DNA from: Amphiscolops sp. MND2022
Taxonomy: Eukaryota
Length of the DNA stretch: 64,000 nt
Reading direction: 5' to 3'
Assembly (NCBI GenBank): GCA_964187785.1
Contig: OZ076409.1
Location: 47,308,001 to 47,372,000 of the forward strand
Shown: positions 513 through 62,606 of the stretch, one piece after another
How positions within the stretch are numbered: position 1 is the stretch's first letter
How the letters are laid out: the number at the start of each line of letters is the position of its first letter
Translations under genes and position numbers: made by a program
Notes under the pieces: model-generated
Database searches by the model: none
What the model was told of the DNA's origin: nothing
What the model saw: only the letters and a program-made list of their open reading frames with translations

Positions 513-3500
513 GTTAACACTTTCTCATTGCTCTTCATTTGGTGATACTATTCTAATGGTAATCCAACCATCATGTTGAGACCTATTTGAACTAATAACA
601 AGCCCAAGTCGGCGCCCCGCTCAAAGTTCAAAAAGGAACAAAGTGTTTAAAATATTTGGGGACCAACTATTGAAACTTTTTAATTATTACACAGTGCTAA
701 AAATACCCAAAGGATTACCTCGAAACTAGCTTTTTCTGATCTGAAAACAATAGAAAAACGTATACATAACAAAACATATGCCCGAAAAACTCAGAAGGAG
801 ACAACTTTTTTGAAATCTGCAAAGGGATTCTATTGTCAAAATTCAATCACATTTACTGAGCCAAAAAAACCCAAAGGAACACCCATAAGACTCAAAAACT
901 GTTTTTTAGCCGGCGCTTTTCGTATAAAACGCAAACTATAGCTCTGGCTTTTTTAAAGATCAACGAGATGACAGGTTTTATGAGCTTTATAAGATTTTTG
1001 ATCGGATATAAAGTTTTCAAAGTTCGCATATAGCGTTTTCAAAGTTCGCATATAGCGTTTTCAAAGTTCGGATGTAACGTTTTCAAAGATCGGATATAAC
1101 GATTTCAAAGTTTGGATATAACGTTTTCACAGTTCGGATATAACGTTTTGAAGTTCGGATATAACGTTTTAAAAGTTCGGATACAGCATTTTCAAAGCTC
1201 GGATGTAACGTTTTCAAAGTTCGGATATAAAGTTTTCAATGTTTTGGTATAGCGTTTTCAGAGTTCAGATGTAATTTCGGCTTTGTGAAATTTTTTCGAT
1301 TTTTTTTCGATACACCTGAAGTGACCAAAATAGTTCTACCAAAGTTCCACGGAATTTTAAATTGTACCCGTTTGCCCAGGGAACTGAACCAAAGAAGTTT
1401 TCTTTTTTTCCTGCGTAACATACAATACCGGGCGAGACTAAAGGGTTCCCCTTCCAGTTTTTTCGGCATAGTGCGACTTTTTTTCGACAAAAAAAATTCC
1501 TCGAAGAACCCCTTCAATTTTTTTGGATTTTTGCGGCAGAAAGGATGTGAGAGAGAGCTAACTTAACGTCTCTGTCTAGAAAAGACAAATTGTTGTCTAA
1601 ACTTTATTATATATTTGTAAACAAGAATCGAACTGAAGCATAATCAAAAATAGATCATTTGCCACATGGTCTTAGTACAGCTCAGCAGTACATTCTTGTC
1701 ATCAATTACCATTCATCAGTATTTACCAGAATAGCTAAAAGTGTCCTCCAACATGGCGCTGCGAGAAACAACAGAAGCAGGCGGGAAGCCAGGAGCAGGC
1801 GGAGCATCAGCTTTAGCAGGACTGCCAGCATATTGGGATATGCCAGAATACCCTCCTAAAAAAGAATGGGGAAAATGGTGGAATTTGTTCCTGATGGCAG
1901 TAAATGCAAAATATTCCATTTAGGTTACAGAACTAACAAGAGTCCCGACACAACAACGACCACGCCAAGCAGCATTGATAAACAACCTCAACGAGGAAGC
2001 AGCGGAGAGAAAAACAGTCAGTACACTATTCCTCTCAATAGGAGCAGCAGGACAGAGAAACCCAACTGATAAATTTCCCTACATGGACGTAGCAACAGTA
2101 CCGACAAGAGAAGTCAAAGAGAACTGTGAAAATTGTTTCATTAAACCGAGAAACCGAACTCTGGATAGATATAAACTCTTTGCCAGAAAACAGCAACAAA
2201 ATGAGACACTCAGACAATTCTGGAATGTCCTAACCGGGCTAGCAGCAAGATGCGAATTTGGAGAACAGACAAATAGTCTAATCAAAGATGCGTTCATACA
2301 AAACATGAACAATAAGACAGTACAACAACGATTGTGTACAAAGCCCAAAGAAGAACCAGAAGAAGCGTTCAAATTTGCTGTAGCATTCGAAGAAGGAATC
2401 AGTCAACAGAAAAGCTTCAGTGGTGGAAACGAAACGAAAGCAGAACCAGTATACCAAATCAATGAACGAGTGAAAAACCCATGTACAAGGTGCGGAGCCG
2501 AATTTACGACAAATCATCTACAGAGATGCAAAGCAATAAAGGAACAATGCCGCAGTTGTGGCGGAAATGGTCACTTCGCACGAATGTGAAGAACAGTGAA
2601 ACCGACCAATCAGAGAGGAAATGGCATTTTCAGAGGAAACAACAACACCGCGCAGAGAACGGAATGAGCAGAATCAACCTAATTGATCAAGCAAACAACC
2701 AATCAGAAGACAGCACAGAAGACGATGCTGAGAAATGCAAGTAGAGGGAAACGGAAGACCACCATTTGTATTAAAAGGGAAGTTCAATAATGTGACATTT
2801 ACCACAAGGATCGTCTCAGGTGTCCCAATAACAAAATATACACAAAGTGATTTGAGAACAATAATGAAGAAAAACGTGTTATTTGCAAGACCACTCCCAA
2901 TGGAAGAAGAATATGTAGACTACAACGGACGACCACTCAACCTACTAGGGTTCACAACTATAGACGTGAAGGTAGGAAAGAAAGAGACCAAGAAGGCAAG
3001 AGTAGTGATAACATGGGACGGAAAGAAATCACTGATTGGAAAGGACTGGTTAACAAGTCTAAACTTCAGAGTACCTGACACAAACAACATGAGTGAGTAT
3101 AACAACAGTATAAATAATATAAATAGTAACAACAAGAAAATAGAAAACATAGAAATATCGAAGAACTAAAAAGAATGAAACAAAAGTTTCCAAAAACTTT
3201 TAGCAGACAAGGGAAAATCGTGGGACACACGATCCAAATAGAATTCAAGGAAGGAGCCAAAGCAACACAGCAGAAAGAAAGAAGCGTACCATTACAACTC
3301 CAAAAAGCAGTAGATGAAGAAATAAAGAATCTAATAAATGCGGGACAAAATGAACCAGTAGACAAAATATCAGACGAAATGTTTATACAATCGGTGGTAA
3401 TAACAGTCGAAAAGGATCGAAGCGTCAAAAACGCATTGGATGGCAGATCACTCAACAATGCCATTATGAACGAAAAATAACAAAAAGCCAAGTCTGGAAA

Positions 3501-25335: not shown

Positions 25336-26439
25336 CAGAGCCCGGATTATGGTGAGAACTCGCTTTCTCACCTTTTTTACGCACCTTTGCCTAATTTTCA
25401 ATTTCACACACTTAATTCACTTTATGCGCACATTTGAGGTAATTTATGGCGGGAAAAAAGATGAAAGATTTTGTTCGCTTTTCTTAAAAAGGACGCATCT
25501 ATTGACCGTCATTATTAAAGGACCTTCAGTATTGAATTTCTTTCGCTGGTTTTATTTGCATTGTTGATAATAATGCCTAAACAGAAATGTTATGGAACTA
25601 TTTTTATTAAAAGCTTGACTGGTGGCGAGAGTATACGGGAGTATAGAACTGCTAAAACGACGTTTTTTGTAAATTATGTTGTATTGCTTTCAATTACGAT
25701 GATTTTAATGTTAAATGGCAATGCGACAGACACTCCACTCGGGAGAAGCACGTGAAACAAGTTCGTTTGAACGCAAAAAGACAGCAGACATTCTAATATT
25801 ATGAGCAATACGATTCCTTCCAGGAGTTTTTAGTTGCCCTGGCTGAAGAAAAAATGCAAAACCCTGAGATGGTCAATAATTCGATTGACCAAATGAATAA
25901 TACGGAACTACAGACTCAATTGGCTTTTATAGCCGGAAATTTTAAGCCTATTACGGATGCTATAACATCTCTCCAAGTCCGCCAATCTATGGTACAATCT
26001 GTGGAAAAAGTTATCGAAAATCTATCGGCTGTTTTACTTGTAGAACCCTACAATGCAAAATTACACAACGTCATTCAAAATAATCCCGATTATGCAAAAA
26101 TGAAAGAATTGAAAAGTGTTCTGGATGGAAAAGATGTCTCGACACAAAGTGGTATTTCTCCACTGCTGGCACCCTTGTATAAGTTTGCCCCGATGAGCTC
26201 AGCAGATATTGCGAGAGTTTTCTCTTCCATGGGAGATGTTATTTCCCCAAAGAGACGATCTTTGACTGTTGAGCATTTAGAATTTTATGTTATTTTATAC
26301 TGGAATACGTTCGGAAAGAAATATATATTTTTTTGAAATTATTTAGTTTTTACGCATTTTTGAGCACTTTTAGCTACTTTTTTACGCTCTTTAGTGCGCA
26401 CTTTTTGAGTGTTTTTGGCGCACCAAAATCCGGGCTCGT
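25336..26439 (+). mobile_element. Internally deleted hAT DNA transposon
   Basis: 8-bp TSD GTCGACGT (25328-25335 and 26440-26447). TIR (CA)GAGCCCGGATTATGGTG ... CACCAAAATCCGGGCTC. ORF 25854-26336 ends in a hAT dimerization-like motif, APMSSADIARVFS...KRRSLTVEHLE. Confidence 0.85.
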
Positions 26440-27104: not shown

Positions 27105-28654
27105 GATAGTTTCGCTTTTCTTGATTACTTCTCGACTAATTTTCGGTATTCGTTTTCTTTTTGCCTTCACATTGATTCCGTTTCGATTCCGAAGACATGA
27201 CAGAACCGGAGACACGGTGTCCGGCCACGACTGCTATATCTGTTTAGTTATATTCCGCACATATTCCATATGGGAAAAGAAAATATTTAAATGAAACGTT
27301 TTTTTACAAAGTTTGCCAAGCACCAAATTTATATTCACATTGAAGGGTGTCACCCACAGAATTCAACTCACATAAGATTAGCTTCGAGATTTTTGGACTT
27401 TTTTGGGAATGACGAAATAGACCCCATAATGATCCAAAATGACCGCGAAAAAACCAAAAAATCCCGATTTCGATGCAATTTTTGTCAAAATTTAAATAAA
27501 CATCGTGGATTAGAGTGTTGAAAACGTTCAACAAGGGAAGAATTCTTTGTTCAGTAAACTTTTAAAGAGATACATGCGGTGTTTCAAAGAAAAATGACCA
27601 AAATGACGCTAAAAATGACAAAAAGTCCAAAAGTTGTAACAATTTTAATGCAATTTTTGTCAAGTTTTCAAAAGATATCGTGGATAAAAATGTTTAAAAC
27701 GTTCAACAAGGCACGAATTGGTTGTCCAGTAGTCTTTTATGAAGAAAAAAATGCGTTTTTTAGAGAAAGAAAATGACAAAAAATCACCCCAAATGTCATA
27801 AAAAGACAGAATTTTCCATTTTTTTTCTCATTTGTGTCATTTTTTCGAAAAACTTCATAGATTAGAAGGCCGAAAGTGTTCAACAAGGCAAGAATTCGTT
27901 GTCCAGTATTCTTTTGCGAAGAGATCAATGTTGTTTTGAAATGAAAAAAAAATGACAAAATGTTTGCAATATTGAAATTTTCAAAAATTTCCTGCAAATT
28001 TGTCAAGATTTCGACAGACTTCGTGTATTGGGAAGTTAGAAGGGGTCAACAAGGAAAGGTTTTGTAGTAGTAGCTTAGTGAGGAGAAAAATGCTATTTTT
28101 CCATCTGAATAATGTCTCGAATTGACACCGAAAAAGACAAAAGTTCCTAAATTTTCCAATTTTCACCGTTTTTTTCCAGTTTTTTGTCGAAGTTTTGATC
28201 GACTTCGTGGGTTGGATTGAAACTGTTAAACAATGTGAGCATATGTTGTTTCAGAAGACTTTTGTCAAGAGATAGAAACAATTTGTATTAGAAAAAAATG
28301 TATTCGTATTTCGAAGAAAATGTGATAAAAAGTTCAAAACTTTCAAGTTTTAGTCGTTGTTAATGCCATTTGCAAATTTTGTACAATTTCCGAGCAATTT
28401 CAAAGACTGAAAACACTAAATTGTTCGAAAATGAAACTACAAGCTATGTAGTACCCTTTTTGACGAAAACGTTGCAGCGTTTTGCTTCAAAAAGACTTCA
28501 GAATGGATGTATATATATATATACCCAAGTCGGTCTGACAAAGGACAATCATAATTTTGCAGTTGTTTGATGCATTACGATTAAATTGATTGACCCAAAG
28601 ATGAAATAGATGGTTACAGGAACAATTCAAGTTTTTCCTCCTGTACAAATCCTT

Positions 28655-30337
28655 ATGCCTTCAACCAGGAGACAAAAGGTGAAAACTAAAAGGTCAAGGG
28701 AATTGGGTATGTTATCTAATTACAGTAACATGGATTTAATGTTAGGAGACGGAAATTCAAACTCTATAGAAAGAGAATTAGACAGTCTCATAAATGGCCC
28801 AGAGGGGCCACAGGATATTCAGACTTTCCCAAATATGGAAACTTCATCTCGAGAGAATGAGATTAGAGATATCAGTAATTGAAATGAACCTGTTAGAGAA
28901 GGCAGACTAATAGAGTCAAATAATATGCTGTCTGGGGAGATGAATGCTAGAATGTCTCGGGAAATGGAGACTATGATGGACTTTATGCAAACTCAGATCA
29001 GTAGGGCTATAAACTCTACTATTAGTGAGAGAATAACACCTGAGATACAAAACATGATGGAAAATTCATCTTTGGTATTGAACCCCGTTTGTTTTTAAAT
29101 GAGGATGATAATGGAAACGTGTGGAAAAATACAAAACTTACAAAGAAGGACTCTAGGTCCGCTGGTGACTTGAGAGATCATACGGACACTACTCCTTACA
29201 TAGTGACAGGAGCCAACGAACTTCAACGTCCGATTCCTGAATTCCTCACAGGACGAATTCATTCTCAGCCAGACCCCCAGAGGCAAGAATCCGCACATGA
29301 TACAACCATGGATACAACTCTACCAGAAGCAGAGCCCGTCATGGCTGAACAACCACAAGACCCTATCAATCGACTGGCAGACGTTCTGGGAAATCTCCAA
29401 AACAAACCGCAATCGATGACAATTCGACCAGTCACGACGAACCCCATGACTTTTGACAGCAAAACTAAGAAGTTTGAACTATTTGAAGATTTATTTCAAA
29501 CCATGATAAAGATGCAGCCCGCTATCACAGAGCAAATGAAAATAAATCATCTTCATTCACTACTCAGAAAAAGAGCCCTGCAAACTTTTCGTAATATAAA
29601 CTCTAAAAACCGTCAAACACTAGAGGACGTATTGGTAATATTCCGCAGAAAATACGTCAAACCCGAATCACAAGCCACAGCAAAGCATAAAGGGCATATA
29701 CTTATTTTCGATCCTAACACGATGAAATTACCCGATTTTCTCAAAGAACTCAATCAGGGCGCCGCGAAAGCCTTCGGAGAAAATGCCAAGAGCATTATCG
29801 ATAGCCTCTTATACGCTAAATTACCTCCAAAACTCAAAAGATCAGTAAATATGGCCCGACTGGAAAACGACACATATGGGGTTATTGTGGGGCACCTAGA
29901 AGGAGAACTCGAAATAAACGCCTCAGAAGAATCCGACGATTTGCCCATTGCCACAAGTCATCGTCGGACAGGGCGCGAAATTTACTATCCAATGGCATTG
30001 ACACCAACAAGAACAACCAATGCTCATACTGCAAAGCTGAGGACCATTTCTGGAAAAAACTGTCCAAAACATAAAAAGAACAAAGAAATGGAAGCTATAA
30101 ACGGCAACAAAGATTCAACGTCCAAACTATCCAGAATGTCCCACTTGCAGCAAAACGAATCATCCGGCAGAAAAATGCTGGCGAGGTGCAGGAGCGCACC
30201 TTCGTCTGAAAAGGTCTAGACAGAACACCGACGAAGCCGAAGCTTCATGGGACGAGTGAACCTCCACTAAAATTGACAAAACTACAACGTCTTCATCAAG
30301 CCAAGCGACTTCCGAAAAGCCTGAGTCAAAAAACTAA
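28655..30337 (+). pseudogene. gag of element 2, initiating inside the LTR
   Basis: ATG (MPSTRRQK) at 28655. The frame, broken by a stop and indels, passes through the LTR end and PBS (Y-I-V-T-G) into TFD.K..KFELFEDLF..MIKM.P...E..KIN..HSLLR..ALQ, which also aligns with the intact gag at 61167-62606. Confidence 0.85.
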
Positions 30338-32818
30338 TTTTGCAACGACTCGAAATATGTAACCAAATGGCGATACGACACTATGTCATATCTGACCCAG
30401 CGATCATCATTTACAAGCAATCACACTACGAAACAACAGGAACACCATCAGTTGTCTGGCAACCACAGATGAAAAAAGCTTACATTAAAACTTACAAACT
30501 GGTCCACAACGACCGCCCAGACCAATACTAAGAAAGGGACTATACTACAGACTTTGAAACCCAATTCCGACCCCTCCAACTAATCGAAGGTTATAACCCA
30601 CAATATATTGACCCCGAGTGCGGCACTGATCCGTATTGGGACAATTCCCTCTATGACCAGGAAACCTTACAGTTCAAAGGTGAGGCACACCGACCAACTG
30701 ATGATGAAGATGACCCTGAAATCCCAGATAACCAATTATCTCGAGCTCTTATTGATTTATGGCAGCCAATTCCACAAATCAATAATATAGTAGGAATAGG
30801 TTACAAGCAAATTACAGATGAGGTACAAGCAACACATGGCCTACTCGACGAGACGGCTTTTCTACATGTCCTTGCAATCAAAGAGGGAGAACCGGCATAT
30901 GTACCTCTGTCCACAAACCTCGGACTAGAATACAAAAAGCGGACTCTATATTTCCCAATGGGTTTTGGAAAATCAACCATAGACGGCCTCATAGACTCCG
31001 GAGCTCTATCCAGTGCATTACCAGAATCGGACCTTAGGAAAATACGCCTCCTAGTGCCACAATCTATATTCAAAGAGGGACCCGCTCCGTCATTTCAAAT
31101 ATGGTCGCTAATGTACAATTGGAAACTCCAAAGAGCATCGTCGAACTCAAGTTCGAAGTAGGACATTGAATTCCAAGAAAAATAAATCATCTTCATTCAC
31201 TACTCAGAAAAAGAGCCCTGCAAACTTTTCGTAATATAAACTCTAAAAACCGTCAAACACTAGAGGACGTATTGGTAATATTCCGCAGAAAATACGTCAA
31301 ACCCGAATCACAAGCCACAGCAAAGCATAAAGGGCATATACTTATTTTCGATCCTAACACGATGAAATTACCCGATTTTCTCAAAGAACTCAATCAGGGC
31401 GCCGCGAAAGCCTTCGGAGAAAATGCCAAGAGCATTATCGATAGCCTCTTATACGCTAAATTACCTCCAAAACTCAAAAGATCAGTAAATATGGCCCGAC
31501 TGGAAAACGACACATATGGGGTTATTGTGGGGCACCTAGAAAGAGAACTCGAAATAAACGCCTCAGAAGAATCCGACGATTTGCCCATTGCCACAAGTCA
31601 TCGTCGGACAGGGCGCGAAATTTACTATCCAATGGCATTGACACCAACAAGAACAACCAATGCTCATACTGCAAACCTGAGGACCATTTCTGGAAAAAAC
31701 TGTCCAAAACATAAAAAGAACAAAGAAATGGAAGCTATAAACGGCAACAAAGATTCAACGTCCAAACTATCCAGAATGTCCCACTTGCAGCAAAACGAAT
31801 CATCCGGCAGAAAAATGCTGGCGAGGTGCAGGAGCGCACCTTCGTCTGAAAAGGTCTAGACAGAACACCGACGAAGCCGAAGCTTCATGGGACGAGTGAA
31901 CCTCCACTAAAATTGACAAAACTACAACGTCTTCATCAAGCCAAGCGACTTCCGAAAAGCCTGAGTCAAAAAACTAATTTTGCAACGACTCCAAATATGT
32001 AACCAAATGGCGATACGACACTATGTCATATCTGACCCAGCGATCATCATTTACAAGCAATCACACTACGAAACAACAGGAACACCATCAGTTGTCTGGC
32101 AACCACAGATGAAAAAAGCTTACATTAAAACTTACAAACTGGTCCACAACGACCGCCCAGACCAATACTAAGAAAGGGACTATACTACAGACTTTGAAAC
32201 CCAATTCCGACCCCTCCAACTAATCGAAGGTTATAACCCACAATATATTGACCCCGAGTGCGGCACTGATCCGTATTGGGACAATTCCCTCTATGACCAG
32301 GAAACCTTACAGTTCAAAGGTGAGGCACACCGACCAACTGATGATGAAGATGACCCTGAAATCCCAGATAACCAATTATCTCGAGCTCTTATTGATTTAT
32401 GGCAGCCAATTCCACAAATCAATAATATAGTAGGAATAGGTTACAAGCAAATTACAGATGAGGTACAAGCAACACATGGCCTACTCGACGAGACGGCTTT
32501 TCTACATGTCCTTGCAATCAAAGAGGGAGAACCGGCATATGTACCTCTGTCCACAAACCTCGGACTAGAATACAAAAAGCGGACTCTATATTTCCCAATG
32601 GGTTTTGGAAAATCAACCATAGACGGCCTCATAGACTCCGGAGCCCTATCCAGTGCATTACCAGAATCGGACCTTAAGAAAATACGCCTCCTAGCGCCAC
32701 AATCTATATTCAAAGAGGGACCCGCTCCGTCATTTCAAATATGGTCGCTAATGTACAATTGGAAACTCCAAAGAGCATCGTCGAACTCAAGTTCGAAGTA
32801 GGACATTGAATTCCAAGA
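29539..32818 (+). repeat. 1,640-bp near-identical tandem duplication of gag-protease
   Basis: 29539-31178 is repeated at 31179-32818, with AAAAT microhomology at the junction and only a handful of substitutions. Confidence 0.97.
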
Positions 32819-35800
32819 AAAATTTATAGTAACGGAAAAACTGACCAGTCCGATCATAGGACTAATGTTCCTACAAAGGAAGCACACAGTCCTGGACATG
32901 CGCCAAGGTATACTAAACTTCCCATACTTTTCAATGCAGCTTAAAACGGCTGACCACAAATATTCAAATGTCCTAGAACCCATCCTCAACCCGCATGATA
33001 TAACTGTTCCCCTCAAGGACTGCATCCTATTAGGGATTAAAGCCCAAATCTATACTGAAAATACTGTTACCGAAGTCCTCCAACCCAGTGATTTATTGCA
33101 TGAAGGGAGCAACATCACCTTCTGTGCCACAGTAGTCACATTGACCAACTGTGCCATAAACATCGATATCAACAAATTTAGTGATCAACCCTATAAACTA
33201 AAGCAATGATTACACATAGCAAAGTTCTCAGTGTTAACTCCTGAGCAAATGAAACATGGTAAACCCATTGATCCAGTGTCCACGTGGCATCAATTGATCG
33301 AAAATGAAGAAAATGTGATTTACTTGTCAGTAGCCTACTTAAGGCAAACAGAAACAATGACCAATACGAGCAATGCTGGTTCCCAACACCTAAAAACCCA
33401 AGGGACGAACAGTCCCATACGCCCATCCAGCGACGAATTCTTCAGGAACTACGGAACCTGCAATTTGCGGAACAATTGAACCCACAAGATATTGAGGCCT
33501 CGCGCAACCGATTCCTTAGTAATTTTGACTGCAAAGACTCTATGCTCCAACAGCATGAGATTGAAAGAACTGAAACACTCTTAGTAGAGTATCATGATAT
33601 CTTTGCTAGGCACAGATTCGACATAGGAATCAACGAGGAGTTTACAGTCAAATTGACCCCAAATGACGACTCCCCCGCCTATAGCCAAAGTCTTTCAACT
33701 CCAGTCAATCTCAAAGAAGACATAATGGTCGAACTGGCGTTATTACACAATAATGGCATAAACACAACTTTGCCGTTCTCCAAGTATGCCAGTCCCATCT
33801 TTGCGCAGAAAAAGCCCAATGGGAAGCTGCGACTATTGGTCGATCGAGGAAAATAAATAACCTCATTTCGGATGGTTACATAAACAATAATCATCCTGTC
33901 AGTACACTTACTGACGCAGCTCAACACATGGCAGGCAAGAAATTGTTTTGTAAATATGATTGTACACAGGCGTACCATTGCCAATGGCGGACCAAATGTC
34001 CATAGAGATGCTTGCATTCAGTTTCGCAAGCCGTACCTTTGCCTATAGAAGACTCGCCCAGGGCCTTAGTAGGGAATTATTGGCCTTTTCAAGCTTTATG
34101 CGAGAATACCTCGATAAAGTAATTAAAGCTGACCAATGCGCCTAATATGTGGACGACATAGGCATAGCCGCTAACGACGCCGACCACCTCATTCAAAACT
34201 TACGGGCAACTTTTGAAAGCATACGCCACGCTGGGCTGAAAGTTACAATGCACAAATGCCATTTTGGAGCCACAGAAATTGACTTCCTGGGAAGGACATA
34301 TACCCCAGAAAAAGTGAAACCACCAAGGGAAAGAATTACAAATTTCCTGGCAAAAGCAAAATTCCCAAATCCCAAAAAGGCCTTACAGAGACACCTTGGC
34401 TTCCTAATCTATTATAGGAACTATATGCCAAGGTTGTCCGAGAAACTTGCTCAATTTCTCCAACTTCTCAAAAAGACGAGAAGGTCCTGGTGACAACTGA
34501 ACTCATCAAACAATTCAATGAGATTAACAGCGACCGCGATAAATGCAGCCAATTAGCTTTAAAGCAACTTTTACCGAACAAGCAACTAGTCTTAATGACG
34601 GATGCTAGCGTTACGGCTGCCGGGTAAGCTATTCTTACCGAGGACGACCCAAATCAGAAATACACTTCTGTCAAGAAATCATATGCGCCCATCGCATTTG
34701 GATCAAAGACTTTCACGCCTTTACAGCTCAAAACGTCCATATACGCCAAAGAAATCCTAGCTGTTTACTATGCTTTTAAAGAATTTGGACATATCTTCTG
34801 GGGAACGTCTCAACCGATTACTATCCTTACGGACAACAAGTCGGAAACAATGTTCTTCCAAACAAAAATAATACCGCTGACACTCTGGAATACTTGTGAT
34901 TATGTGATGAAATTTAATTTCGTCATAGCACACATCCCAGGGAAAAACAATCCTGCTGCCGACTACCTTTGCCAAATGGAAGTAGATCCTAAAGATAAAT
35001 TAATCCTAAAAATCCGGGAAGACGTGGAAACACGGCCCATGGATGTCAATGTCCAATCAGCAGGCGTATCAGAAGAGGAACAGGTTTTCTTCACTGAAGT
35101 TGATGACGAGACAGAAGAACAGATTTGGGAGCGAAGAAACCAATGTCGTAACAACCCCATAGGACGAGAAGTCACAATCCAAATCGACGCAATATCAAAG
35201 AATGTAGTCGACGAAATCACAACTTTTACCCAGAAATTGCATAGAACTAATCAAATCCTATTCGAACAGTCCAAAGACCCTATTTTACAAAATGAAGACT
35301 ATTCGGAAGAGATTCTCCTGCAGGATACTCGTTATAAGCACTATCTCAACAATTTGGACGGGATAGTCCTGAGAGACGAGACAGTCACACGACAATATTG
35401 TTACGAAACTGGACAGATTAAATATAATCAGATCCTCTTACCAAAACACCTGCTAAAGGAACTCTTACAAGCGTTACATGGAACAGCACACAAACACCCT
35501 GGCATGTCTAAAATGCTCCAGGAAATTCGTCAAAAATATTACTACCCCAGAATGGCTAAACATGTTAAAAGATGGGTAGAAGGTTGCGAATCTTGTGCAA
35601 AAGACAAGCGCGTTTCAAACAACTCAATAACACTTGAATTACTCATTTTGCCCGAATGGGACCTTGGATCAGAGGATGCACTGCAGATTGATCTACTGCC
35701 AAACCTACCAACAAGTGGACGTTACGAAACAGTAATGACGGCCATTGATGTCTTTTCAAGATACCTGTTTGCCTACCCGCTAACTGAAGCTACCGCTTCA

Positions 35801-37070
35801 AATACCGCAAAGGTCCTAACAGACATAATGACAAAACATTCTTTTTTGCCGACTCGAAGGAACTGCCTTACGTCAAAAATTATAGCAGAAATAACGCAGA
35901 TCCTGGGAATAACCCTGGGATAAACAACCACTAAAAGTCCACAAGCAATTGGTGAACTAGAACGGACGCACGCCTCATTAAAAACAAATTTGAAAATGGC
36001 CTCAGGGGAATACTGCCATCAATGGCAGAAATATTTGCCACTAGCTGTGCTCAATTATAATACAACTTATCACTCCAGTGTAGGTTGTGAACCCAGCAAG
36101 GTTTTTCACGGACGGATTCCCTACCACGTCTTAGATCATAAACTTGGAAATAATCCCAACAAGGATTTCTTGCCTACAACGGAATTTGAAGAACAATTAC
36201 AGAAAAGAACGCAAATTCTAAGTGATCAAATAAAGAAAAACATTAGGCAGTCATACTTGAAATACAAAGGAAATTATGACCTAAAAGCCAAGGTAGCCCC
36301 GCTGAACGACCAGGATTTTTGTTTTATCCTGCAACCTAAAGCTGATAATCAAGGATCGAAAATACCAACCAGAGACAACCGTTGGATTGGACCCTATATA
36401 ATTGAAAAGGTATTACCTAATGACAATTATATGGTCAGGCGTCTAAATACTAATAAAACGCAAATACTACACCGTATCAGGATCAAAAAATTTGTCCCGA
36501 ATACACCTTCAGAAGACAAGTACAGTAAAGAGAAATTACAACCTGACGAAGAAATCGTCATACCCCAAAACGACCTACATACAATCTCTTGGGAAGCCAA
36601 CTTTGATTATGAAACATTTGAGCCGAGACAAGACGCTGTCCCACACGGGACTACGCAGCGAGACGCTGCACATACAAGTGACGCGACAGAAAATGACGTC
36701 ACCGAAAGAAGAATACTGATAGACGAATCGCCTTACGCGGCAGAATATGAAAATGACGTCACCGAGAAAGATGAATGCAGAGCGACAAGCAAGGACGCAG
36801 AAAAACCGAGTGGGCCGACGGCCCCAATAGTCCAGATGTGGCTAATTCGCCTCCTAACTCGGAAAATATTGATAATGATGGTCTAAATGAGAATGCCGAG
36901 GATACTAACGTTTCCAATAGGGGCGGAGATAAACGGTGCCCGGAATATCAGATGATCGAAAAGCAAATGAAAATTCCGATGAACATGCAAGCCCTAGAGG
37001 GGGGAAATATAACTTTAGGTCTAACCCTACCCCAAACTTTACTGATGAATACAGATACCAGACAGAAATG
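31980..37070 (+). pseudogene. pol of element 2 (PR-RT-RH-INT)
   Basis: IDSGA; YASPIF..KKPNGKLRLLVD; YVDDIGI (about 34146); TDAS; ADYL; integrase LHGTAHKHPG...CESC, QIDL and WIGPY. Many frameshifts. Confidence 0.94.
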
Positions 37071-40200: not shown

Positions 40201-41019
40201 GCTGCAGCCTTTTTCAATTGTTTCCCTGACTTGTCGGTCACTTTTCGACTTTGGGCTTGTAGGAGTAACGATTTCATCATTTGGAAACTAGAAATGACGC
40301 TCTCATCGGCTTAAGTACGCAGGACCTGGTGCATCTGCGATTCACTGAATGCAATAGTTTGGTGGCCAATGGGCAGTTCTATGGGCTTGTTGGCAGAAAA
40401 GTATTTGCTGATGGTAGCCATTTCGGTCGCAGATAACTCTCGAGGCGTGGACGCCAAGGTTTTTCTGTTTTGGGCCTGTTCAACGTCGTTATGGCAAGCT
40501 TCACTGTGCAGGTCGCCTACGAAGGCAGGAAATGAACTAGTTCCAGAGGTAGTAGCACGAGCTTGTTCGGCATCGGCAGCAACTCCAGAGCTATCATAAA
40601 GCTCGTCCAAATCACTGGAGTCTGTCTGCAATAACTCTCGGAGGGTAGTCTTTCTCCCTCCTGTGACAATGTCCTGACTGGATTTTTATCAGTTCGTCCA
40701 GAGCTACTCGCTGTCACAAGAGTTAAAGGATCGGACACAGAAACTTTCTCTCCTGGGCCATCAGATGAAGAGGGCAGTTCCGCTGACGTCTCTTGTGCCT
40801 CGGCGTCTTGAGTAGTGTGGTCAGGAGTCATGGCAGTGAGGGTTCGCTCCACAAATGTTGTTATGCTTTCATCAGTTGACCCACTACTGGGCTTGTGACG
40901 GTTTCTTGCCTAGTGTTGGCAGCTGCGTTTGTGGACTCACTCTCAAGATTAGTGGAGCCACACAGGTCCTCTTCGCCAACTGTGGTAATTTTGGGGATCT
41001 CTTTTTCTTCAGTGGACAT
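37234..41019 (-). pseudogene. Antisense spliced ORF in element 2: hAT-transposase-like protein with zinc finger, about 1,240 codons, decayed
   Basis: Chain of minus-strand frames from MSTEEKE (41019) to the stop at 37234. Disordered acidic N-terminus, then YCQICKTNVSIYSKGARERLRHYQKESH, then FSLEFD...YLSIRYW. A GTAAGT...TTTTCAG intron lies at 39354-39283. Confidence 0.7.
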
Positions 41020-42122: not shown

Positions 42123-42965
42123 ATGGCTGCCTTATATCCAGAGGACTTCCAAGGTGCAGCGTCCTCAGGAGACGATATCATTATTATATCTAGTGACGAA
42201 GATGAACTTATGGACAGCCTGAGCCTAACATCGGTGTTTGATTTACAACTCTCATCTGAAGGAGAGGAAGAAGACGAAGAAAATAATCTGATGGCTAAAT
42301 GCGTTGAGATGGAAATGTCAGCGCCAACCCCCATCCCAGGACCATCTTATGCAGTAAGAGCCAAGGAGGAAGTTGGCCTGCCATGGCTTCCAGAAAATGA
42401 AATGCAGACGAGGCCGGTCACACCAAGACCGATGTTCGATCCCTCTTACTTCTCTTTAGGAAGACAAGAGAGATGACAGGCTCAGGGATGGTCGTCCTAT
42501 TACATGATGCAGAAATTTAGTCCCGATGATAGACACCCCTTTGTCTCCTCCACCGCAAGAGAGAGGACCGACCGATGACATACGTCCTACAGTGTTTTGT
42601 GACGCTCATGGCGATCAACACCAAAGGCCTGATCGAAGTCTGGAATCAATCACGAAACACTTCCAAGGAATGGGACTAAGCGGGACTAACTCACTAGCTG
42701 GTTATTCTGACTGCGTAATATGTGGAAAGCTGTCGAACAGGTCAAAGATGAGGCAGTCACTGACTATCTACACAGAACTGCAATTCCTAACCAGTCTCTA
42801 CAGCAATTCGATGCGAGGAGGTTGGTTTTCCTAGAAGGGATGGAAATTGGTACTTTTCTATTACTCCCAGGAGGAGTGTCGCAGGCTGCCGCGGGTGACG
42901 GCAATCTGTACACGATTGACTCAAGCCGACAATACGCCCTGCTGGGCACATTGCCACTACAATGA
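42123..42965 (+). pseudogene. Accessory ORF3 of element 2 (acidic, SIM-like IIIISSDEDE, Cys/His cluster)
   Basis: Three consecutive frames broken by a stop and frameshifts. Preceded by TATAAA near 41980. The 3' end is conserved in the related copy at about 47370-47455 (minus strand). Confidence 0.6.
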
Positions 42966-45964
42966 AATTTTCAAACTGCTAGTAAAAATTTTGGAACTTT
43001 TACATATGTTGTTTATAATAATTTGCATGCAAATATAGTGAATCATATAATATGTTCAATATTTGAGAGCAAGTTCTACTGACAGGCAGAAAGAAAACGA
43101 GTTCAAATGTCTGCCTGATCAGTATAGCTAGCATGGCCGGCCGTGGCATAATAGCCAATCAGGGCTCTTCATTCATTTACCGCTGCTTTAATTTATAGTG
43201 CACTACAAATACTCAATTGGAATGGACGCACAAGGCAATATGGCTTTGCTGGTCCTAATATGTGAATTGGTTGATGCTGTATTATTTCACACCATTTGGT
43301 TGCGAAATTATGCCTTACACGATAGTCAGACATGCAAGTCGTGTATGAATGTACATGTAGTGTTGCGATATAAATGAAATGTTCATGGTTGCTATGATAC
43401 GTTTATTAATAATCAAAGCGGACTAAAGTAATCATTTGATCCTTTGTGTTTTGAAGCTGTACGCAATGCAATCAGTAAAGGACAAACAGGGCATTCTCTT
43501 ACCGGTCTCATCCAATCAAACCAAATTTGGTGATGTAGTGATACAAATTTAAGCCCAACATGGTCAACAGGCCAAGTGTGGTTTACATGAATTGAATTAC
43601 ATGAAATCACAAACATGTAAAACAGTACTATTTTAACTGTGCTGTATTATACGCCCTACGCGGCTACGCGTCAGTGCCCCCCCCACTGTGCGTAGCACGT
43701 TGCCCTTTGATCTTGCCGCTCCGCTAGTCGAAGTGACGTCATGTATTCCTTCAACCAGGAGACAAAAGGTGAAAGCTAGAAAGTCAGGGGAATTGGATAT
43801 GTTATCTTATTACGGTAACATGGATTCAATGTTAGGAGACGGAAATTCAAACTCTATAGAAAGAGAATTAGACATTTTCATTAATGGCACAGAGGGGCTA
43901 CAAGATCTTCAGACTTTCCCAAATATGGAAACTTCATCTCAAGAGAATGAGATTAGAGATATCAGTAATCGAAATGAGCCTGTTAGAGAAGGCAGACTAA
44001 TAAAGGTAATTAATATGCTGTCTGGGGAGATGAATGCTAGAATGTCTCGGGAAGTGAGACTATGATGGACATTATGCAAACTCAGATCAGTAGGGCTATA
44101 AACTCTGCTATTTGTGAGAGAATATTACCTCAGATACAAAACATGATGGAAAAGTCACCTTTGGCCCAACAAGGCATTGAACCCTGTTTGTCTTTAAATG
44201 AAGATGGTATTGGAAACGTGTGGAAAAATACAAAACATACAAAGAAGGACTCTAGGTTCGCTTGTGACCTGAGAGATCATACGGACACTACCCCTCACAT
44301 TTGCTTTGTTTGAATATTTTTAGACATTTTTGGTAATATAAAGTTTTCGAGAAGCTTGAGAAGATAACTGAGTTTTCAGCAAGCTTTTAGAAGAAAGTTT
44401 CCTCAGAATGACCCCAAATTTGCGAAAAACACTGAAATTTTGTAATTCTTCTAATGAGTTTTCTGTATGAATTTTGAGCAAATTCCTTGATCCAAATGAT
44501 TCAAAAACTCTGTAGTGAATAAATTTGGTATCTAGTAGGCGTTTTTGAAGAGGTAAATACAATTTTTTGTCGGAATTGGCCTTAGAACACCACAAAACTC
44601 AAAAAAACGTTTTTTGACACAATAACTCCAAATTTTGTTCGAATAACGAAATATTTCTGTAGATTAGAGCATCCTTTGACCTGAACCCTGAACGTTGGAA
44701 CAAGACGGAATTCGAAATGCAGTTTGTGGTTGAAAGTGGGATAGAGTTCCTCACATTTAACAACGAAGGCGCCAAAAATTCAGAATTCTCCTAATTTGTA
44801 ACATAGACCCAGTTTTAACGCTTCCTAAAAATTTCTTTCAATCAAAAAGCCCAAAGCTTCAAAACGTGTAGCTACCGGTAGTGTTTTGGAAAGATATCGA
44901 GCAATTATTCTAGCGGAACGTCCCGAAAATGTTACTTGAAAGCGTAAAATTTATTCGAACTTTTCTGTCAAACATACAATTTTCAAAAAACTCCATGCAA
45001 AATCACTAGGTATGGAGTTCGTTTTTCAAAAAACTGATTCTTGCAGTTCCCCAGGTAGGTAGAAAGCTAAAGAAAGATCCAAAAATCGAGAATGTTTCGA
45101 TTAGATTTTTTAGATGAGACATCTGTAGTTTCATCATGTGAAGGACACTAGCTCCAATCTTTTACCCTTTTGCCGAAATTAACCCCAAGAAAGACGCGCA
45201 AACTAAAAAGAGACTCGCAAACTAATTTTTCTCCAACAGGAAAAACAAAGAATCCATTTTTTGAATTTTTTCGGTAATGTCCCATAGTGCTGCAAAACGT
45301 TTCAGCTCGCAAAACTTCTCAGGTCAAAATCATTTTTGAAAGTGAGGGTCACCTTTCGACCAACGAAGGTTTCGGAAAGACGTACAGATTCGAAAAAAAA
45401 ATTCGGAAAGTCGTACAGACTGGAAAAATTACTTTTCTCAAGCAAGCCGCAATCAGTTAAAAAGCAAGGGAGCATCCTTCGACTAAATGAAAGTTTCGAA
45501 AAGACGCACAGAGCCGAAAAAACTGAAATGAGGTTTTTCCACAATCAATAAGAAAACTCATCACTTGCACAGGATCAAAATCAAACAAAGAGATCAACCT
45601 CCAGGCTCGGCAAACATATTTCCTCTACTGAAAACCACAAAAACTTGACATTTAAAACAAATTCGGTAAATGATCTCGGGAAAGTTTTTAAAAATTTTTC
45701 CTAACTCGGTAAATCGCACAGGACCCAAAAAACGAACATTGGCCAGCTTTGCTTGCAAAACGCTGTAGTTTTTGCTGAGAAACGAGGGATGGAGTTTAGG
45801 TCTGCAAAATAGTGTAAAAAAAGTCGTATAGTCCCGAAGAAGTTTTAAAGGTGGAAACTTGGGTCTTCTCCTACTTTCCCATTAAATTTTTTTGTTTTCA
45901 ATGGCTATTGTTGAGCCTCAAATTTATGTTGTTGTGAACTGTTAAGAGTGGATTGAATGATATC

Positions 45965-47460
45965 TGTAAGGAACAAAGTGCGTATCTTTTCTGAGATCAC
46001 AAGTGGACCTTGAGTCTTTCTTTGTAAATTCCATGTTTTTGGTTTTCCAAGCATTAGCAATATTATACCCAGTTAAAGCCGTACACGGCTCTGGGCCATT
46101 GCGACTTAAAGCCAAACTTCCCATTGTATTTTGTATTTCAAGAATGATTCTATCAATAATAGCGGACCTTTTTGCCCTATTGATCTGCGACGGCCTTAGA
46201 TCCATCAACGAATCCGTTTCTCGAGAAAGTCTTTCATTCATTTCATCAAACAATATGTTAATAGATTCCGAAAGTCCTTCTGGTCTGATTGACCCGTTCC
46301 TATTTTCAATATCTCTAATCTCGTTCTCGGGAGATGAATTTTTTCTATTAGGCAAGGACTGTAGGTCTTGTTGTCCCTCAGTGCAGGTTTTTAGGCTATC
46401 CAGTTCTCTCTCTATAGAATTCGTATTACCTTCATCTAACATGACGTCCATGTTACCGTATTGGGACAATATGTCCCGTTCTTGATTTTCTACATTTTGC
46501 CTTTTGCTTTCTCGTGGAAAGCATGAATACTTGTACAGGAAGAAATTTTCAAATTGTTCCTGTAATCTTAATGTTAAATCCGATTGTACAATGAACACTT
46601 GAACAAAAGCAACTTGTATCGTAGTTTATTTCAATAACTTGTGTCGTCTAATGCCCGGGTTGGGTAGTTATACCTACACGAGCATGACACTCAAGTCTAC
46701 AAGGATCATGTTACTAAAAACAGCACTGAACTAAGAATAGTAACATTTTATCATTCTAATTATAGGAAATGCTGTCATAAATGTTTGCAGGGGAGGCAAG
46801 GTCAAAGGCTTGCGCGGTTGAGGAGCAAGGGGGAGTGACGCATGTCCAAATACGGTCTTGCAACAAATATATCAAATCACGGTTTACACGTTAACACTAC
46901 ATGCATGTTGAATTGGTTAGGTCGCTTTGTCTACCTGGCCGTATTTAGCCTTCCGTAAAATCCATACAAGGGAAGGGTTATTCATAGCAAAATTAGCTCT
47001 TTAGTATTTCATCAATGGAAAGGTCTTATACAAGTAGAGCGCCTTCTAATGAATGATTAACATCAGCTAAATAGAATTGACAAGTAAGGCCAGCCAGGCC
47101 GTGTGACCTTACTCGTCCTTTCCGCGTAAGTATTAGTACAGCTATATAATTAACAAAGAACCAACTAATATCAACTGCGCTGTGATTGGCCAGCTAGCCG
47201 GCGACGGTCTCGTTGAACAGGCAAAACTTTGAACACGTTTCATTTCTGCCTGTCAGTATAGCTTGCTGTCAATTGTTATTTTACATGGTTGAAACACTTA
47301 TGACAATATGCATTGAAAACAATACTATTAAGTTTCAAAATATTAACAGGGATTTGAGAGTTCCAGTCTTTTAAAGGTAGTGTTCCGGGCAATGCGATTT
47401 GACTTGTGTGGTCTATGATATATATGTTGCCATCGCAGGCGGCAGCCTGCGACAATATCA
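45965..47460 (-). mobile_element. 3' end / LTR fragment of a relative of element 2
   Basis: Minus strand ends ...CCTTACA with no PBS after it. Encodes a homolog of the LTR-borne Gag N-terminus (YGNMDVML.EGN.NSIERELD...TKKDSRS.CDLR) and shares blocks with 42870-43720. Confidence 0.85.
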
Positions 47461-55690: not shown

Positions 55691-58600
55691 ACATTTCGTT
55701 TTTGTTCCTCTCGTAAGCCTACCCTATCGAAAAACACCATCTTGGTGTATATGGAAACATCATGTAGTCAGAGCTTTGGGGCAAAGGTTTAAAAAGTTCA
55801 TTTTCAGGTCTAAACGATTAATTCCACATCTTCTTGGGCACGAGGATGTTGCGTAATAAAATAAAAGCTTGTTTGCGATTTTTATTTCGGCAAACTGTAA
55901 AAACGTTGAAATAATTTTCTTTTCAAGCTTCACAAAAAAATCTTCCAAGCTATCTCGAAACTTTGCTCACCAATACTAGGTGAACCGAAAAAATACGAAC
56001 GTACAATGTTTTTCACCTCTTCAAAAGCGTAATAGTTGTAAACAAGACACTGAAAAACGTTCACTTTCTCTGTCAATCATCCTCTCATTACGCAATTTAG
56101 TTTTCAACAATGAATGATCCGAACCTTCAGAAAAAGTCTAGACAAATTTACCAGTCATTTCATTCACACTTCTGATGTGTGACAAATTATTAGGTTGGTA
56201 GAAAAGACAAGCTGAATCACAATGTTCAGAGTTGTTTTGAAACATTTGTTTACAAATATTTGGACTTTTGAGAGCTTCAAAATTTTTTATGCGTTCCGTT
56301 TTTTTGGTTCACCTAGTATTTGTAAACAATGTTAAATTTTTGTCGATGCTGCTATTATTCCTAATATGCTCTAATCATTTGCGGACAAAAAAAGAAACGA
56401 CGTACAAAACATTCTTGACTATTCTTTTTGAAACTAACTGTATTAGCTGTAGTGAGAACTACAATTGCTTTACTGTGGAAAAAAAAAACAGAGAAACTTC
56501 ATTTGTACTACCTTATGAAAACACCATTCTCCCAAGATATCAATCTATGAAACACTCCTTGTTACGACTGGTGTTCGGGTCGTTTTGTGTTGAATTTATC
56601 CTAACAAGTTTAGTAGGGGTGTAAAAACTTCTAGTGTCATTTTCTATTTCTTCCTCGACATTTTCCCTAACGTTTCCCCTTGTTTCAGGTTTTAAGAGTT
56701 TCAACATTTCTCTCTGGGAGTCGATGAGGAGATTCTTAATTTCAGACGTTATTTCTTCCTTCAACGAGGCTCTCAAGCTTTCTAAGAAACTATTTTCCAC
56801 CCTTGAAGATTTTGGTTCTGACGGGCCTGCGTCGTCAACATCCTGGTTTGGAAGACAAGGGTTCCTTATTTCTACCGGTGAAATAAAACCTTCACTTACA
56901 TTCTCATTGCTCTCCTGTTGGATGTTTCTTCTCTTTTGACTTCTTGTTGTAGACATGTTGAAGAAAAGATTTATCTTGAAGAATTGATTTTTCTTTTGAA
57001 GAAGTTTTCTAACAAAGTTAGGCAAAGATTTGGTGAAATTGAAAATTCAAACTGAATTACACAATTACAAAAGACTGAGTCCCTGAGTTAGCGAAAATCA
57101 TCCTATATATACCCTCCTGGCATCATTTGATCACGATTAAAACCCTAATTTCCTTCGAACAATTAGTCACTTCCTGTATTTTCGATGAAAAATCATTTTG
57201 TTCCCAATTTTACGTCGACATTTCGTCAATTTTTGAGACACGGCAATTCCAATCTAGCATTAGTCATCAACCATGATCATATCATTTCAGCTCGGCGTCC
57301 TTTTGCTTTCCTCCCAAGCAGGAAGTAGATATTACTTCAGTCTGTCAAACCGGAAATATTTCCCTGTTTTACTGACTTGGTTCGCGGGAAAAATGACGCT
57401 GAGATGACGCTGACGTGAACAACTAATACTCAATTTGGAAATCAACTCGATGAATTGTGATGACTAATTTCAAATTAAGGTTATTTCAACGATGCTAAGA
57501 AAAGGCTTTGAAATAATTTGGGACGCAATCTTTTGGTTAAAATTAAATTTATAGTCCTCAACAAACTAGATGCAAATGTATGCCCCAACTCTGGCTTGTC
57601 GCGGCGAGTGCGACAAGGTTACAAATTAAATTTAACAGAACAAAACTTTAAACATCAACTCTAAACTGCATTGTAAAATGAGCTTGCATTGGCATTAACA
57701 ATCTCATTTGGAGGAATAACATTTAGTTTTAATAACATTAACAGGTACAAAACCTTTCGAGTATAAATATAAGGCAACGCAATGGCATCGTCTTGTAGAA
57801 TGGATTGATGAATTTATGGTACAAAAGTTTATCCAACAACGGCTTCATGACACAGATCACAGCAAATATATAAAAATACCTCAGGTAGTAAAATATCGAC
57901 ATTCGTTTAGTGTTAGGAAATAAACCATGACTTTTGTTCTATTAGAAGCGGAAAAATTCTCCTTTTAAGCTAGTCCCTAAGTGATTCTGATCTAGTCATA
58001 ATTTACCCGACAAAATGCAGGTGTATCCTTGTATTTTTCCCATTTTAACCTAAAATGAGCGCATCGTTTACATTAAATCCGTTACAATCATCGCGCATCA
58101 TGTTATTTTGGATGGATGAAAACAGTTATTTTGATGGATTTGCGACAACATAACGACAAGTTTCTTAGCTAACTTGGCAGCTTGCCAAGTTTGACGAGTA
58201 GCTGACGCATATTCTAGAATGAATTTCTGACTAGCTACCAAGTAAGACGAAGTGCTGACGTCACAATTTGGAATGAAATTCTGGTTAGCTGCCTAGTTAG
58301 TGACGTCATAGCGACGAGTAATTTGGATTAATTCTAGTTAGTTAACTAGTCAACGACGTGTCAATGACGTCATTACAAATATTGAAAATTGCATGTACCA
58401 CCAACATTTGTTTGTTCAGCAACGCGGTACCGTCCTATTCTGCATTGATTGCTGTTCAGAGTGCAATTAAGCTGCCTTTCTTAGAAAGGCGTAAATAATT
58501 CAGCGTGCCGTCTCAAAGTATTTCCTATTTTAGTTCTTATTGATGTTCTTTTCTGATAGACTGTTTTGGATATTTTCCATCTAGATCGGATTCTGGCTTT

Positions 58601-60579: not shown

Positions 60580-61170
60580 TGGAATGTCTGCAGTGGCTAT
60601 TGGCTGCTCTAGTTGTGCGTTTGCGCATTCAATTTTGAAAGGAGGTTGGGGGTATTCTTTTATGACACAGCTATCGGTATTCATCTTGATGGCATTATAG
60701 TCTGACCATGACATGGCATTGATGAACGCACCTGAGTCGACAAGTCCGTCCATAGTGATTTCTCCAAATTCAAGCGGTAGATAGAGCATTCTTCGCTTTT
60801 TCTTGAGGACTATATTCGAGTGGAGAGGTAAGTACGTCTCTCCGTCCTTTTCAGTGACATACTCCTTAATAGAGTTAAGAGATGCGGGGAAATCTTCCGG
60901 GAAGATAGGTACTTGGGTGGAGCCGTGAGTATCTTCCTTTGTCAGTGGTGACGATGGTTGGTCTTCATGGTCCTCATCTGGTGTTTGCTCTTTTTCGGTT
61001 TGTATGAGGGGTCTTCGTATGGAGGCGAGTGCCTGACGTCTCAGCCAGTCCTCTGTTGGAGTTCCATCGCATTCTATTGTTGTATCTGTTGTGTACGTCG
61101 TAGGGGGATCGTTCGTTAAGTACGCCCTCGCGTCTACTGTTTCCCCGAAGCGCAGGCGCGGCGTAATTAG
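60580..61170 (-). pseudogene. Truncated pol (aspartic protease only) of element 3
   Basis: LYLPLEFG...GLVDSGAFIN...FKIECAN..LEQPIATADI, then an abrupt switch to low-complexity sequence. Confidence 0.85.
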
Positions 61171-62606
61171 TTTTTTGAGTCAGTGACAGTGTTAGCTGTT
61201 GCTTGTTGGACGGGAACGTCCTTTTTTGGTTCTGAATTGTTGTGACGCTTAGGTCGTGGATCGTTGGCAGAGTTGGCTCCGTTCCAACAATCTTCCGTTT
61301 TGTGGGGTTTGCCGCATGTTTCGCATTTGAACGGTTTGCCTGCACTCGTGTTAGTTTGACCATTGTTTTTTCTGGTTTGCATCCATTTATCTCTCTTCAT
61401 TTTCCTGCATTCTGCCTTATAGTGTCCAAATTTGTTGCAGTGGAAGCAATATCCTTTTTTGACATTTTGCGTCGTGCTGTCGACTTGTTTGGACTCAGTT
61501 TTTGCTGGGGCTGGTTCTACCTTGTTTAGTGGTACTAAGGTTACCTCATCCGGTGCTCCAAGGCCGTTAAGTCTCATTTCGCGTTCTAGGTGGAGTACTA
61601 TATCATTATAGGGTTTATCCTCGAGGTATGCCTTGTTTAGTATTTTCTTGACGTGGTCTGGCATCTTTGCATAGATCGCCTTATCAATAAATTGTTGGGC
61701 TTCAGAGCCAAAGGCTTCCTTGGCAGTTTTTTGAAGTATGTCCAGAAATTCGTGGAGTTTCTGGCTCGAGGGATCGAATTTGAGCGCATCCCATTCGCAT
61801 CTTGCCTTGGCCATAGACAAATAGTCTCCAAAACGTCGCTTGAAAATTGTCATTATTTCGTCAAGGGAATCCTTTTTCGTGTCTTCTATGTTGCAAAACG
61901 CCTGGAGGGCGTCTCCTCGTAGCAGTGAATGGAAATAATTGATTTTTTGTATCTCCGTGAGATGTGGATACATTTTGATGTTGTTACGGAAAAGGTCCTC
62001 AAATAATTCAAATTTTTCCGATTTCCCGTCGAACGTTGGGAGAGATGCCGTTAATGCTTTTGGCATAGGCAGCGTAGTGCTGTCGCCTTTTTCCGACGCA
62101 AACAAAGTTCTCGCTACAATTGGACGTTCTTTTGACGCCGGTTGACTTTGAGACCGGGCTTTCGTTCTTTTTGGCTGGTTAGTGGAGTCGGTTAGAACTC
62201 CTGTCACCATGTTACGACTGGTGTTCGGGTCGTTTTGTGTTGAATTTATCCTAACAAGTTTAGTAGGGGTGTAAAAACTTCTAGTGTCATTTTCTATTTC
62301 TTCCTCGACATTTTCCCTAACGTTTCCCCTTGTTTCAGGTTTTAAGAGTTTCAACATTTCTCTCTGGGAGTCGATGAGGAGATTCTTAATTTCAGACGTT
62401 ATTTCTTCCTTCAACGAGGCTCTCAAGCTTTCTAAGAAACTATTTTCCACCCTTGAAGATTTTGGTTCTGACGGGCCTGCGTCGTCAACATCCTGGTTTG
62501 GAAGACAAGGGTTCCTTATTTCTACCGGTGAAATAAAACCTTCACTTACATTCTCATTGCTCTCCTGTTGGATGTTTCTTCTCTTTTGACTTCTTGTTGT
62601 AGACAT
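61167..62606 (-). CDS. gag: Intact Gag polyprotein of element 3 (479 aa from the MSTTRSQK ATG)
   Basis: Open frame with a capsid-like region (LPTFDGKSEKFELFEDLF...) and two CCHC knuckles, CFHCNKFGHYKAEC and CETCGKPHKTEDC. Confidence 0.93.
   Translation of the reverse strand: MSTTRSQKRRNIQQESNENVSEGFISPVEIRNPCLPNQDVDDAGPSEPKSSRVENSFLESLRASLKEEITSEIKNLLIDSQREMLKLLKPETRGNVRENVEEEIENDTRSFYTPTKLVRINSTQNDPNTSRNMVTGVLTDSTNQPKRTKARSQSQPASKERPIVARTLFASEKGDSTTLPMPKALTASLPTFDGKSEKFELFEDLFRNNIKMYPHLTEIQKINYFHSLLRGDALQAFCNIEDTKKDSLDEIMTIFKRRFGDYLSMAKARCEWDALKFDPSSQKLHEFLDILQKTAKEAFGSEAQQFIDKAIYAKMPDHVKKILNKAYLEDKPYNDIVLHLEREMRLNGLGAPDEVTLVPLNKVEPAPAKTESKQVDSTTQNVKKGYCFHCNKFGHYKAECRKMKRDKWMQTRKNNGQTNTSAGKPFKCETCGKPHKTEDCWNGANSANDPRPKRHNNSEPKKDVPVQQATANTVTDSKN

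Follow-up and report, generated by a model that had tools for sequence, protein, structure and literature searches.

HIV nef and MMTV sag overlap the U3 of the LTR, at the 3' end of the element. In the pufferfish V-clade1, pol is the gene that overlaps the LTR at U3 (PMC11117352). Ty1 of Saccharomyces cerevisiae has a 5' UTR of 53 nt and a PBS at nt 95-104, and silent PBS changes that keep the GAG sequence are described for it (PMC5454406). Since such changes are silent, the PBS of Ty1 is translated and its LTR holds the start of Gag. The preliminary description of the locus studied here had treated a gag start downstream of the PBS as normal; Ty1 is a precedent for a start upstream. Ty1 p22/p18 and DRT2 are truncated Gag restriction factors, capsid C-terminal domains that block assembly (PMC13709905).

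How far into an LTR can gag extend? The window, by which we mean the whole 64,000-nt stretch of DNA analysed, holds members of a probable Ty3/Gypsy lineage in which the first 125-195 or so codons of gag very probably lie in the U5 of a long LTR. That gag can start in U5 is already known from Ty1; the scale here appears about tenfold larger, in a Ty3/Gypsy lineage. No description of a long gag-in-LTR overlap was found in the literature searched, a partial coverage with Repbase outside it, and the available portions of PMC4402516, PMC2774666, PMC7175516, PMC3601003, PMC5408684, PMC11381356 and PMC3095310 contain none. The coordinate table of PMC13524379, as far as it was accessible, does not fix gag starts, so the frequency of the overlap is not readable there.

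LTR copies and elements in the window

Self-comparison found the block with the MPSTRRQK frame three times in the window, as copies A, B and C, and bore out the frame and coordinates first given for it (Table 1). A (28654-29201) and B (43744-44300) are 90.1% identical over 558 columns; A and the minus-strand copy C are 67.2% identical (28614-29200 against 46565-45965). The block is the 3' end of an LTR of 1.4-1.5 kb. B and C are also alike over about 390 bp at the 5' end (42877-43268 against 47454-47075, 65%), and both LTRs open with the same TGTCGCAGG. Because the TSD GATAT stands on both sides of C, C is a solo LTR. The third occurrence, noted earlier at 45965-46520, is indeed the same block, but it lies on the minus strand and belongs to a sister family, as a solo LTR separate from element 2. 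Delimitation by TSDs, as proposed at the outset, succeeded for C; the window contains no TSD for element 2, and the U3 of A is absent from it.

Copy A closes with CA at 29200, and the PBS-like 12-mer directly after it differs at one base from the 12-mer of element 3. The Leu tRNA 3' end matching the last 9 bases of this PBS comes from the table of PMC13524379, the available part of which holds no exact 12-mer. ARAGORN found no tRNA genes in the window. Copy A retains the LTR only from the TATA-like run at 28510 onward, and an nhmmer search for its U3 found none in the window. A and B, which are 90-92% alike, were assigned to one element only because gag, pol, the extra ORFs, the purine tract and an LTR follow one another in that order. 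A degenerate family of ~175-bp tandem and dispersed repeats occurs at 27300-28505, 21300-22010 and 15100-16220, and one of these arrays adjoins the TATA run of A.

Table 1. Features of the elements in the window and their coordinates
Feature	Position	Strand	Remarks
First Met of the element 1 gag frame	1753..1765	+	ATG made by the LTR/PBS junction; in-frame stop 7 codons upstream
Putative promoter of element 2, TATA-like (TA)n run	28510..28523	+	Left edge of copy A; aligns with TATAA at 46672 in C
Poly(A)-signal-like hexamer	28580..28585	+	AATAAA at a similar place in C (46630)
LTR-borne N-terminal gag, 5' LTR of element 2 (copy A)	28655..29200	+	MPSTRRQK frame; broken
PBS of element 2, probably tRNA-Leu type	29201..29212	+	In gag frame; last 9 bases match a Leu tRNA 3' end, compared by eye
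Internal gag of element 2 (capsid, two zinc knuckles)	29201..30337	+	Decayed; ends at a -1-frameshift-like AAAAAAC-stop
pol of element 2: PR, RT with YVDD, RNase H, integrase, p58/GPY-type C-terminus	30338..36886	+	Decayed
Short purine tract, PPT-like	42869..42876	+	8 nt, directly 5' of LTR B
Copy B, 3' LTR of element 2	42877..44299	+	1423 bp, TGT...ACA
Copy C, solo LTR of sister family	45965..47454	-	1490 bp, TGT...ACA; 5-bp TSD GATAT on both sides
3' LTR of element 3	56540..58350	-	Ends at 56560; candidate other end ~58890
gag of element 3	61167..62606	-	Intact, 479 aa; first 132 codons (62606-62210) in 5' LTR
PBS of element 3	62209-62198	-	Same reading phase as element 2

Which part of the LTR carries the frame? 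In A and C a TATA-like motif stands ~145 nt, and a poly(A)-like hexamer 75-105 nt, upstream of the ATG. In LTR B, about 100 nt of unrelated GC-rich sequence (~43640-43744), ending at the start-codon position, replaces the TATA/5'UTR segment; the A/C type is probably the family norm, given three relatives with frames that extend upstream. The preliminary description had assigned the block to R/U5. Coding it is, but its position 3' of the TATA-like box and the poly(A)-like hexamer in A and C points to U5, and not R, as its most likely place. In A, 45 nt above the start, a stretch that resembles a PBS contains an in-frame ATG; it was considered as an older priming site and rejected: three relatives read S-T-G/R-T there, with no Met, and C lacks the stretch.

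Downstream of its gag, element 2 has the pol order PR-RT-RH-IN, with Pfam placing RVT_1 at 34146, followed by RT_RNaseH, Integrase_H2C2, rve and Integrase_p58_C, and with a protease motif recognised by eye. The best PDB matches of the RT are Ty3 RT (E 4e-10). On the basis of this Ty3-like RT and the pol order, the lineage is most likely Ty3/Gypsy. DUF1759, a family frequent in BEL/Pao, is the best Pfam match of Gag, and the ESM neighbours are Ty3_capsid/Retrotrans_gag clusters, a comparison made by search matches only. A 1.64-kb tandem duplication (29539-31183 and 31179-32823; 99.6%, 6 differences) lies within this otherwise decayed element; it arose recently or is an artefact of assembly.

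Several long antisense ORFs (37234-40685, minus strand), with no Pfam match, separate the pol of element 2 from its third ORF. The sense-strand third ORFs of elements 3 (58794-59552, minus strand) and 2 (42060-42476, plus strand) have an acidic I-I/D-I-S-S-x-E-D-E start and likewise no Pfam match. The U3 end of the LTR codes too: the third ORF passes the purine tract and runs ~30 codons (~90 nt) into LTR B (42877-42965, plus strand). Solo LTR C keeps the homologous frame (47454-47362, minus strand), in which the differences by codon position are 9/5/17 (p 0.027).

Element 3 (56560-64000, minus strand) is young, with 3 differences in 1791 nt between its LTRs, an intact Gag and a pol that stops after the protease region near 60580; it reads as a non-autonomous or freshly deleted copy. 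Its LTR has a TATA run with an initiator-like TCAGTC 33 nt below, and a scan of the sequence after the TATA box turned up no canonical poly(A) hexamer. Element 1 (1543-7039, plus strand) has 211-bp LTRs that are 94% alike, and its PBS matches a tRNA-Ser 3' end given in PMC13524379. The Met formed by the LTR/PBS junction of element 1 appears to be the real gag start. By eye, a 262-codon open frame elsewhere in the window (16571-17359, minus strand) resembles a host exon with helical repeats, and a 179-codon frame (25797-26336, plus strand) resembles the C-terminus of a DNA transposase.

Selection on the frame and its spread among relatives

The gag frame is open in none of copies A, B and C. 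The stop reported at 28880 in A is present, the aligned codon of the 3' copy is a sense codon, and A also has a 10-nt deletion near 29073. The block of B (43745-44299) lacks the start codon expected at 43745 and has lost 1 nt near 44056, and that of C (46524-45965) has a 2-nt deletion near codon 15. An intact Gag, P0126, covers the frame of A at 75% identity in tblastn.

Was the frame selected as protein? With gap and stop codons excluded, dN/dS is 0.19 for A-C (bootstrap CI 0.00-0.32) and 0.19 for B-C (0.00-0.31), values that come from three decayed copies only and a dS near saturation (1.5-1.6). The purifying selection postulated for the LTR-borne frame is thus found between lineages. The other two forward frames give 0.92-1.07, and the antisense frame with common third positions gives 0.35, as expected. 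Differences by codon position are 43/48/84 for A-C (p 2e-4) and 47/49/90 for B-C (p 7e-5); those of the shared non-coding U3 are 36/39/29, with no bias (p 0.47). The two LTRs of element 2, A and B, yield a dN/dS of 1.26 (0.56-4.6), as expected for neutral decay. Their differences lean to first positions (21/15/8, p 0.056) and frame +1 gives 0.34, a lean that is unexplained. These results support the LTR-borne frame as a part of Gag under purifying selection between lineages, not between the LTRs of one insertion. The low ratio between lineages and the neutral value for A-B together indicate that selection acted during transposition, not after insertion.

Relatives with the same layout are numerous. 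They are proteins without DNA context, in which the LTR limits were taken from a junction motif, [MIV]V[TS]G. The open part of the gag of A, used as query, matched 3434 of 4988 candidate clusters; the junction motif is present in 119 of the best 120 of these 3434, and in 102 of the same 120 the frame is open from the start motif to the junction motif, at a distance of 181-190 residues. The gag of element 3 matched 2863 of 6906 candidates. Its junction motif occurs in 103 of the best 120 of the 2863 and stands 125-135 residues past the start motif in 48 of the best 120, by a pattern that misses one subfamily. At the 50% cluster level, a junction-like motif lies ahead of the capsid in 40 of 150 representatives, and 13 of the 150, one of them doubtful, have 102-195 residues ahead of it. 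The latter representatives suggest that an LTR-borne gag start is a lineage-wide layout.

Details of the junction agree across these proteins. A Y precedes it in 117 of 118 listed relatives, and an N in 97 of 98, as required by an LTR end of the form NAC-A. One of the three phases across the junction has a stop, and all families use the phase in which CA/TGG forms an in-frame ATG. Gag ends in KN at an AAAAAC-stop site in 75 of 120 and 103 of 120 listed relatives, which suggests a -1 shift into pol. In one relative, P0288, the LTR-borne block forms an in-frame tandem pair ahead of the junction motif, and P0423 has repeated junction-like motifs.

What could the LTR-borne part of Gag be? Profile and Atlas searches gave it no convincing family match; residues 1-187 had only a 0.75 match in the ESM Atlas, and the P0126 model had no Foldseek match at E<=0.001. 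This part is a fast-evolving N-terminal extension, for which the weak structure prediction for P0126 (mean pLDDT 48.8) shows a basic tip, disordered stretches and one long helix (80-136). The predicted capsid part comes nearest to PNMA2 and Arc, with weak matches (E 0.03-0.1). A metagenome scan returned one weak zinc-knuckle match (L001) among 27 stretches. Our guess is that the extension may serve as a matrix-like module for RNA binding, localisation or oligomerisation.

Read-through from other LTRs and the rival explanations

Residues 1-187 of P0126, compared with proteins under 311 aa, matched 633 of 661 candidates, a set biased toward open copies whose denominator is not known. Among the best 120 of these 633 short relatives, 99 reach the junction and 21 do not; 11 continue into Gag and 88 switch to other sequence, the 88 including P0378, with a short Gag-type tail, and about three proteins misaligned at the junction. 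The family start motif is present in 57 of the 88. Their first new residue is coded by an ANN codon in 86 of 88 cases, against 41 of 83 one position later (p 5e-24). As A is the last LTR base, this bias fixes the LTR end to the base from proteins alone. Nothing in the frame itself brings it to a stop, and in young 3' and solo LTRs it does run on into the flanking DNA, as the preliminary description had supposed. One of the three 3' or solo LTRs in the window is open, the 3' LTR of element 3; its 138-codon ORF, from 56956, consists of 132 LTR codons and 6 flank codons.

Do these copies matter to the host? According to the preliminary description, each 3' or solo LTR would bring a promoter and an open N-terminal exon to bear on host DNA, and if such cassettes made host fusion proteins of biological weight, read-through of the kind found in the 88 relatives and at element 3 would be expected. 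However, A, B and C are broken, B lacks both the ATG and the TATA/5'UTR segment, and with one open copy in three the claim does not hold for every LTR. Nor are the tails longer than chance would give. Their median length is 14 codons, against 14 in non-element window DNA (Mann-Whitney p 0.47), and 7 of 88 reach 50 codons, against 9.7% expected by chance. The 32 tails of at least 20 aa include one pair that is alike and two that match window repeats, the nine proteins with the longest tails have no Pfam match at the curated cut-off, and no splice-donor motif within 290 nt of the LTR end was found in the 4 LTR copies scanned, nor any common to all. We see no sign of a host-directed function and consider the host-exon reading quite unlikely; the fragments would be a mechanical by-product.

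Might the true Gag start instead at the junction ATG, with the U5 frame a vestige or a separate upstream peptide under RNA-level LTR constraint? An in-frame ATG with a G after it is always present at the junction, the gag of element 1 appears to begin at this site, and the block, for which no convincing family match was found, evolves much faster than the capsid, at 45% against 95% likeness between two subfamilies. Yet the third-position bias and the dN/dS of 0.19 are protein-level signals, the Met and basic R-x-Q-K tip are kept across families only 12-17% alike in the LTR part, and length differences between subfamilies preserve the frame. That the U5 frame is not the start of Gag is therefore very unlikely in our judgement; the junction ATG could act as a second or main gag start. 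There is next to no chance that the repeats are internal gag fragments produced by rearrangement or misassembly. Element 2 does hold its tandem duplication, and A lacks U3, but C has a TSD and TG...CA ends, B follows a PPT, A is followed by a PBS, element 3 has the same layout, and the breakpoints are base-exact in 86 of 88 relatives. The LTR assignment made at the outset, which tandem internal fragments would have contradicted, is upheld by these features.

Proposed cycle and comparison with known systems

From the LTR limits, the continuity of the frame over the LTR/PBS junction, the selection between lineages and the fixed junction phase, all demonstrated above, the favoured reading of a gag start inside U5 can be put as a cycle. 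With a transcription start ~30 nt below the TATA box, the poly(A) signal would fall in a short R, ahead of a long coding U5. Translation would begin at the ATG in U5 and pass through the PBS, which would be translated as M-V-T-G, to the capsid and zinc knuckles; a -1 shift at the gag stop would yield Pol. In the standard scheme of reverse transcription (PMC7175516), both LTRs receive their U5 from the 5' end. The 3' and solo LTRs would hold a passive copy, rebuilt from the 5' end in each cycle, selected only through the 5' copy and left to neutral decay after insertion. Such copying accounts for selection between lineages together with neutral decay within one insertion.

How could gag have come to start there? 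It may once have begun at the CA/TGG junction ATG, as in element 1, and then have grown upstream into U5 in the same phase. The in-frame junction ATG in all families and the apparent start of element 1 at that site suggest, without proof, such upstream growth. A bolder version, which we regard as improbable, would have lineage-wide LTR coding at both ends, with a third-ORF tail in U3 and a Gag domain in U5 grown from the CA/TGG ATG. Many young solo and 3' LTRs would then be expressed as a capsid-less Gag N-terminus with random tails, which would either hold back assembly of the element increasingly with copy number or seed new host genes.

A layout of this kind would break the working rule that LTRs are non-coding, at about ten times the scale of Ty1. 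LTR-only libraries of the lineage would contain protein-coding sequence, LTR divergence between families would not be neutral, and a Gag annotated from the PBS onward would lose a quarter to a third of the protein. Leftover repeats would scatter the gag N-terminal fragment through the genome, and gene callers turn solo LTRs into spurious proteins of 190-260 aa by the hundred, as the matches among short proteins show. The layout also gives a testable route for the extension of an ORF into U5, and a natural experiment: do cassettes of promoter, ATG and ORF at many loci ever become host genes?

How does the locus compare with the systems described above? With p22/p18 and DRT2 it shares a truncated piece of Gag that could be made apart from the full element; the LTR-borne piece differs in that it has no capsid and is known from sequence alone. 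V-clade1, nef and sag resemble it in placing an LTR under protein-coding constraint, and the third-ORF tail in U3 is of the same kind, but their overlap lies at the 3' end of the element, whereas the long Gag N-terminus here lies at the U5 end. Ty1 shares the GAG start in U5 and a PBS inside the gag frame, here at the level of sequence. It differs in scale, since its LTR of 334 bp holds ~13 codons of GAG and the LTRs here, of 1.4-2.3 kb, hold 125-195, and in lineage, Ty1 being Ty1/copia while here the integrase follows RNase H and the RT is Ty3-like. Ty3/Gypsy elements (Metaviridae) share the order gag-PR-RT-RH-IN, the CCHC knuckles, a tRNA PBS and a 5-bp TSD. The elements described here differ from these in their extra antisense ORFs, in a third ORF whose tail runs into U3, and in carrying a quarter to a third of Gag within the LTR.
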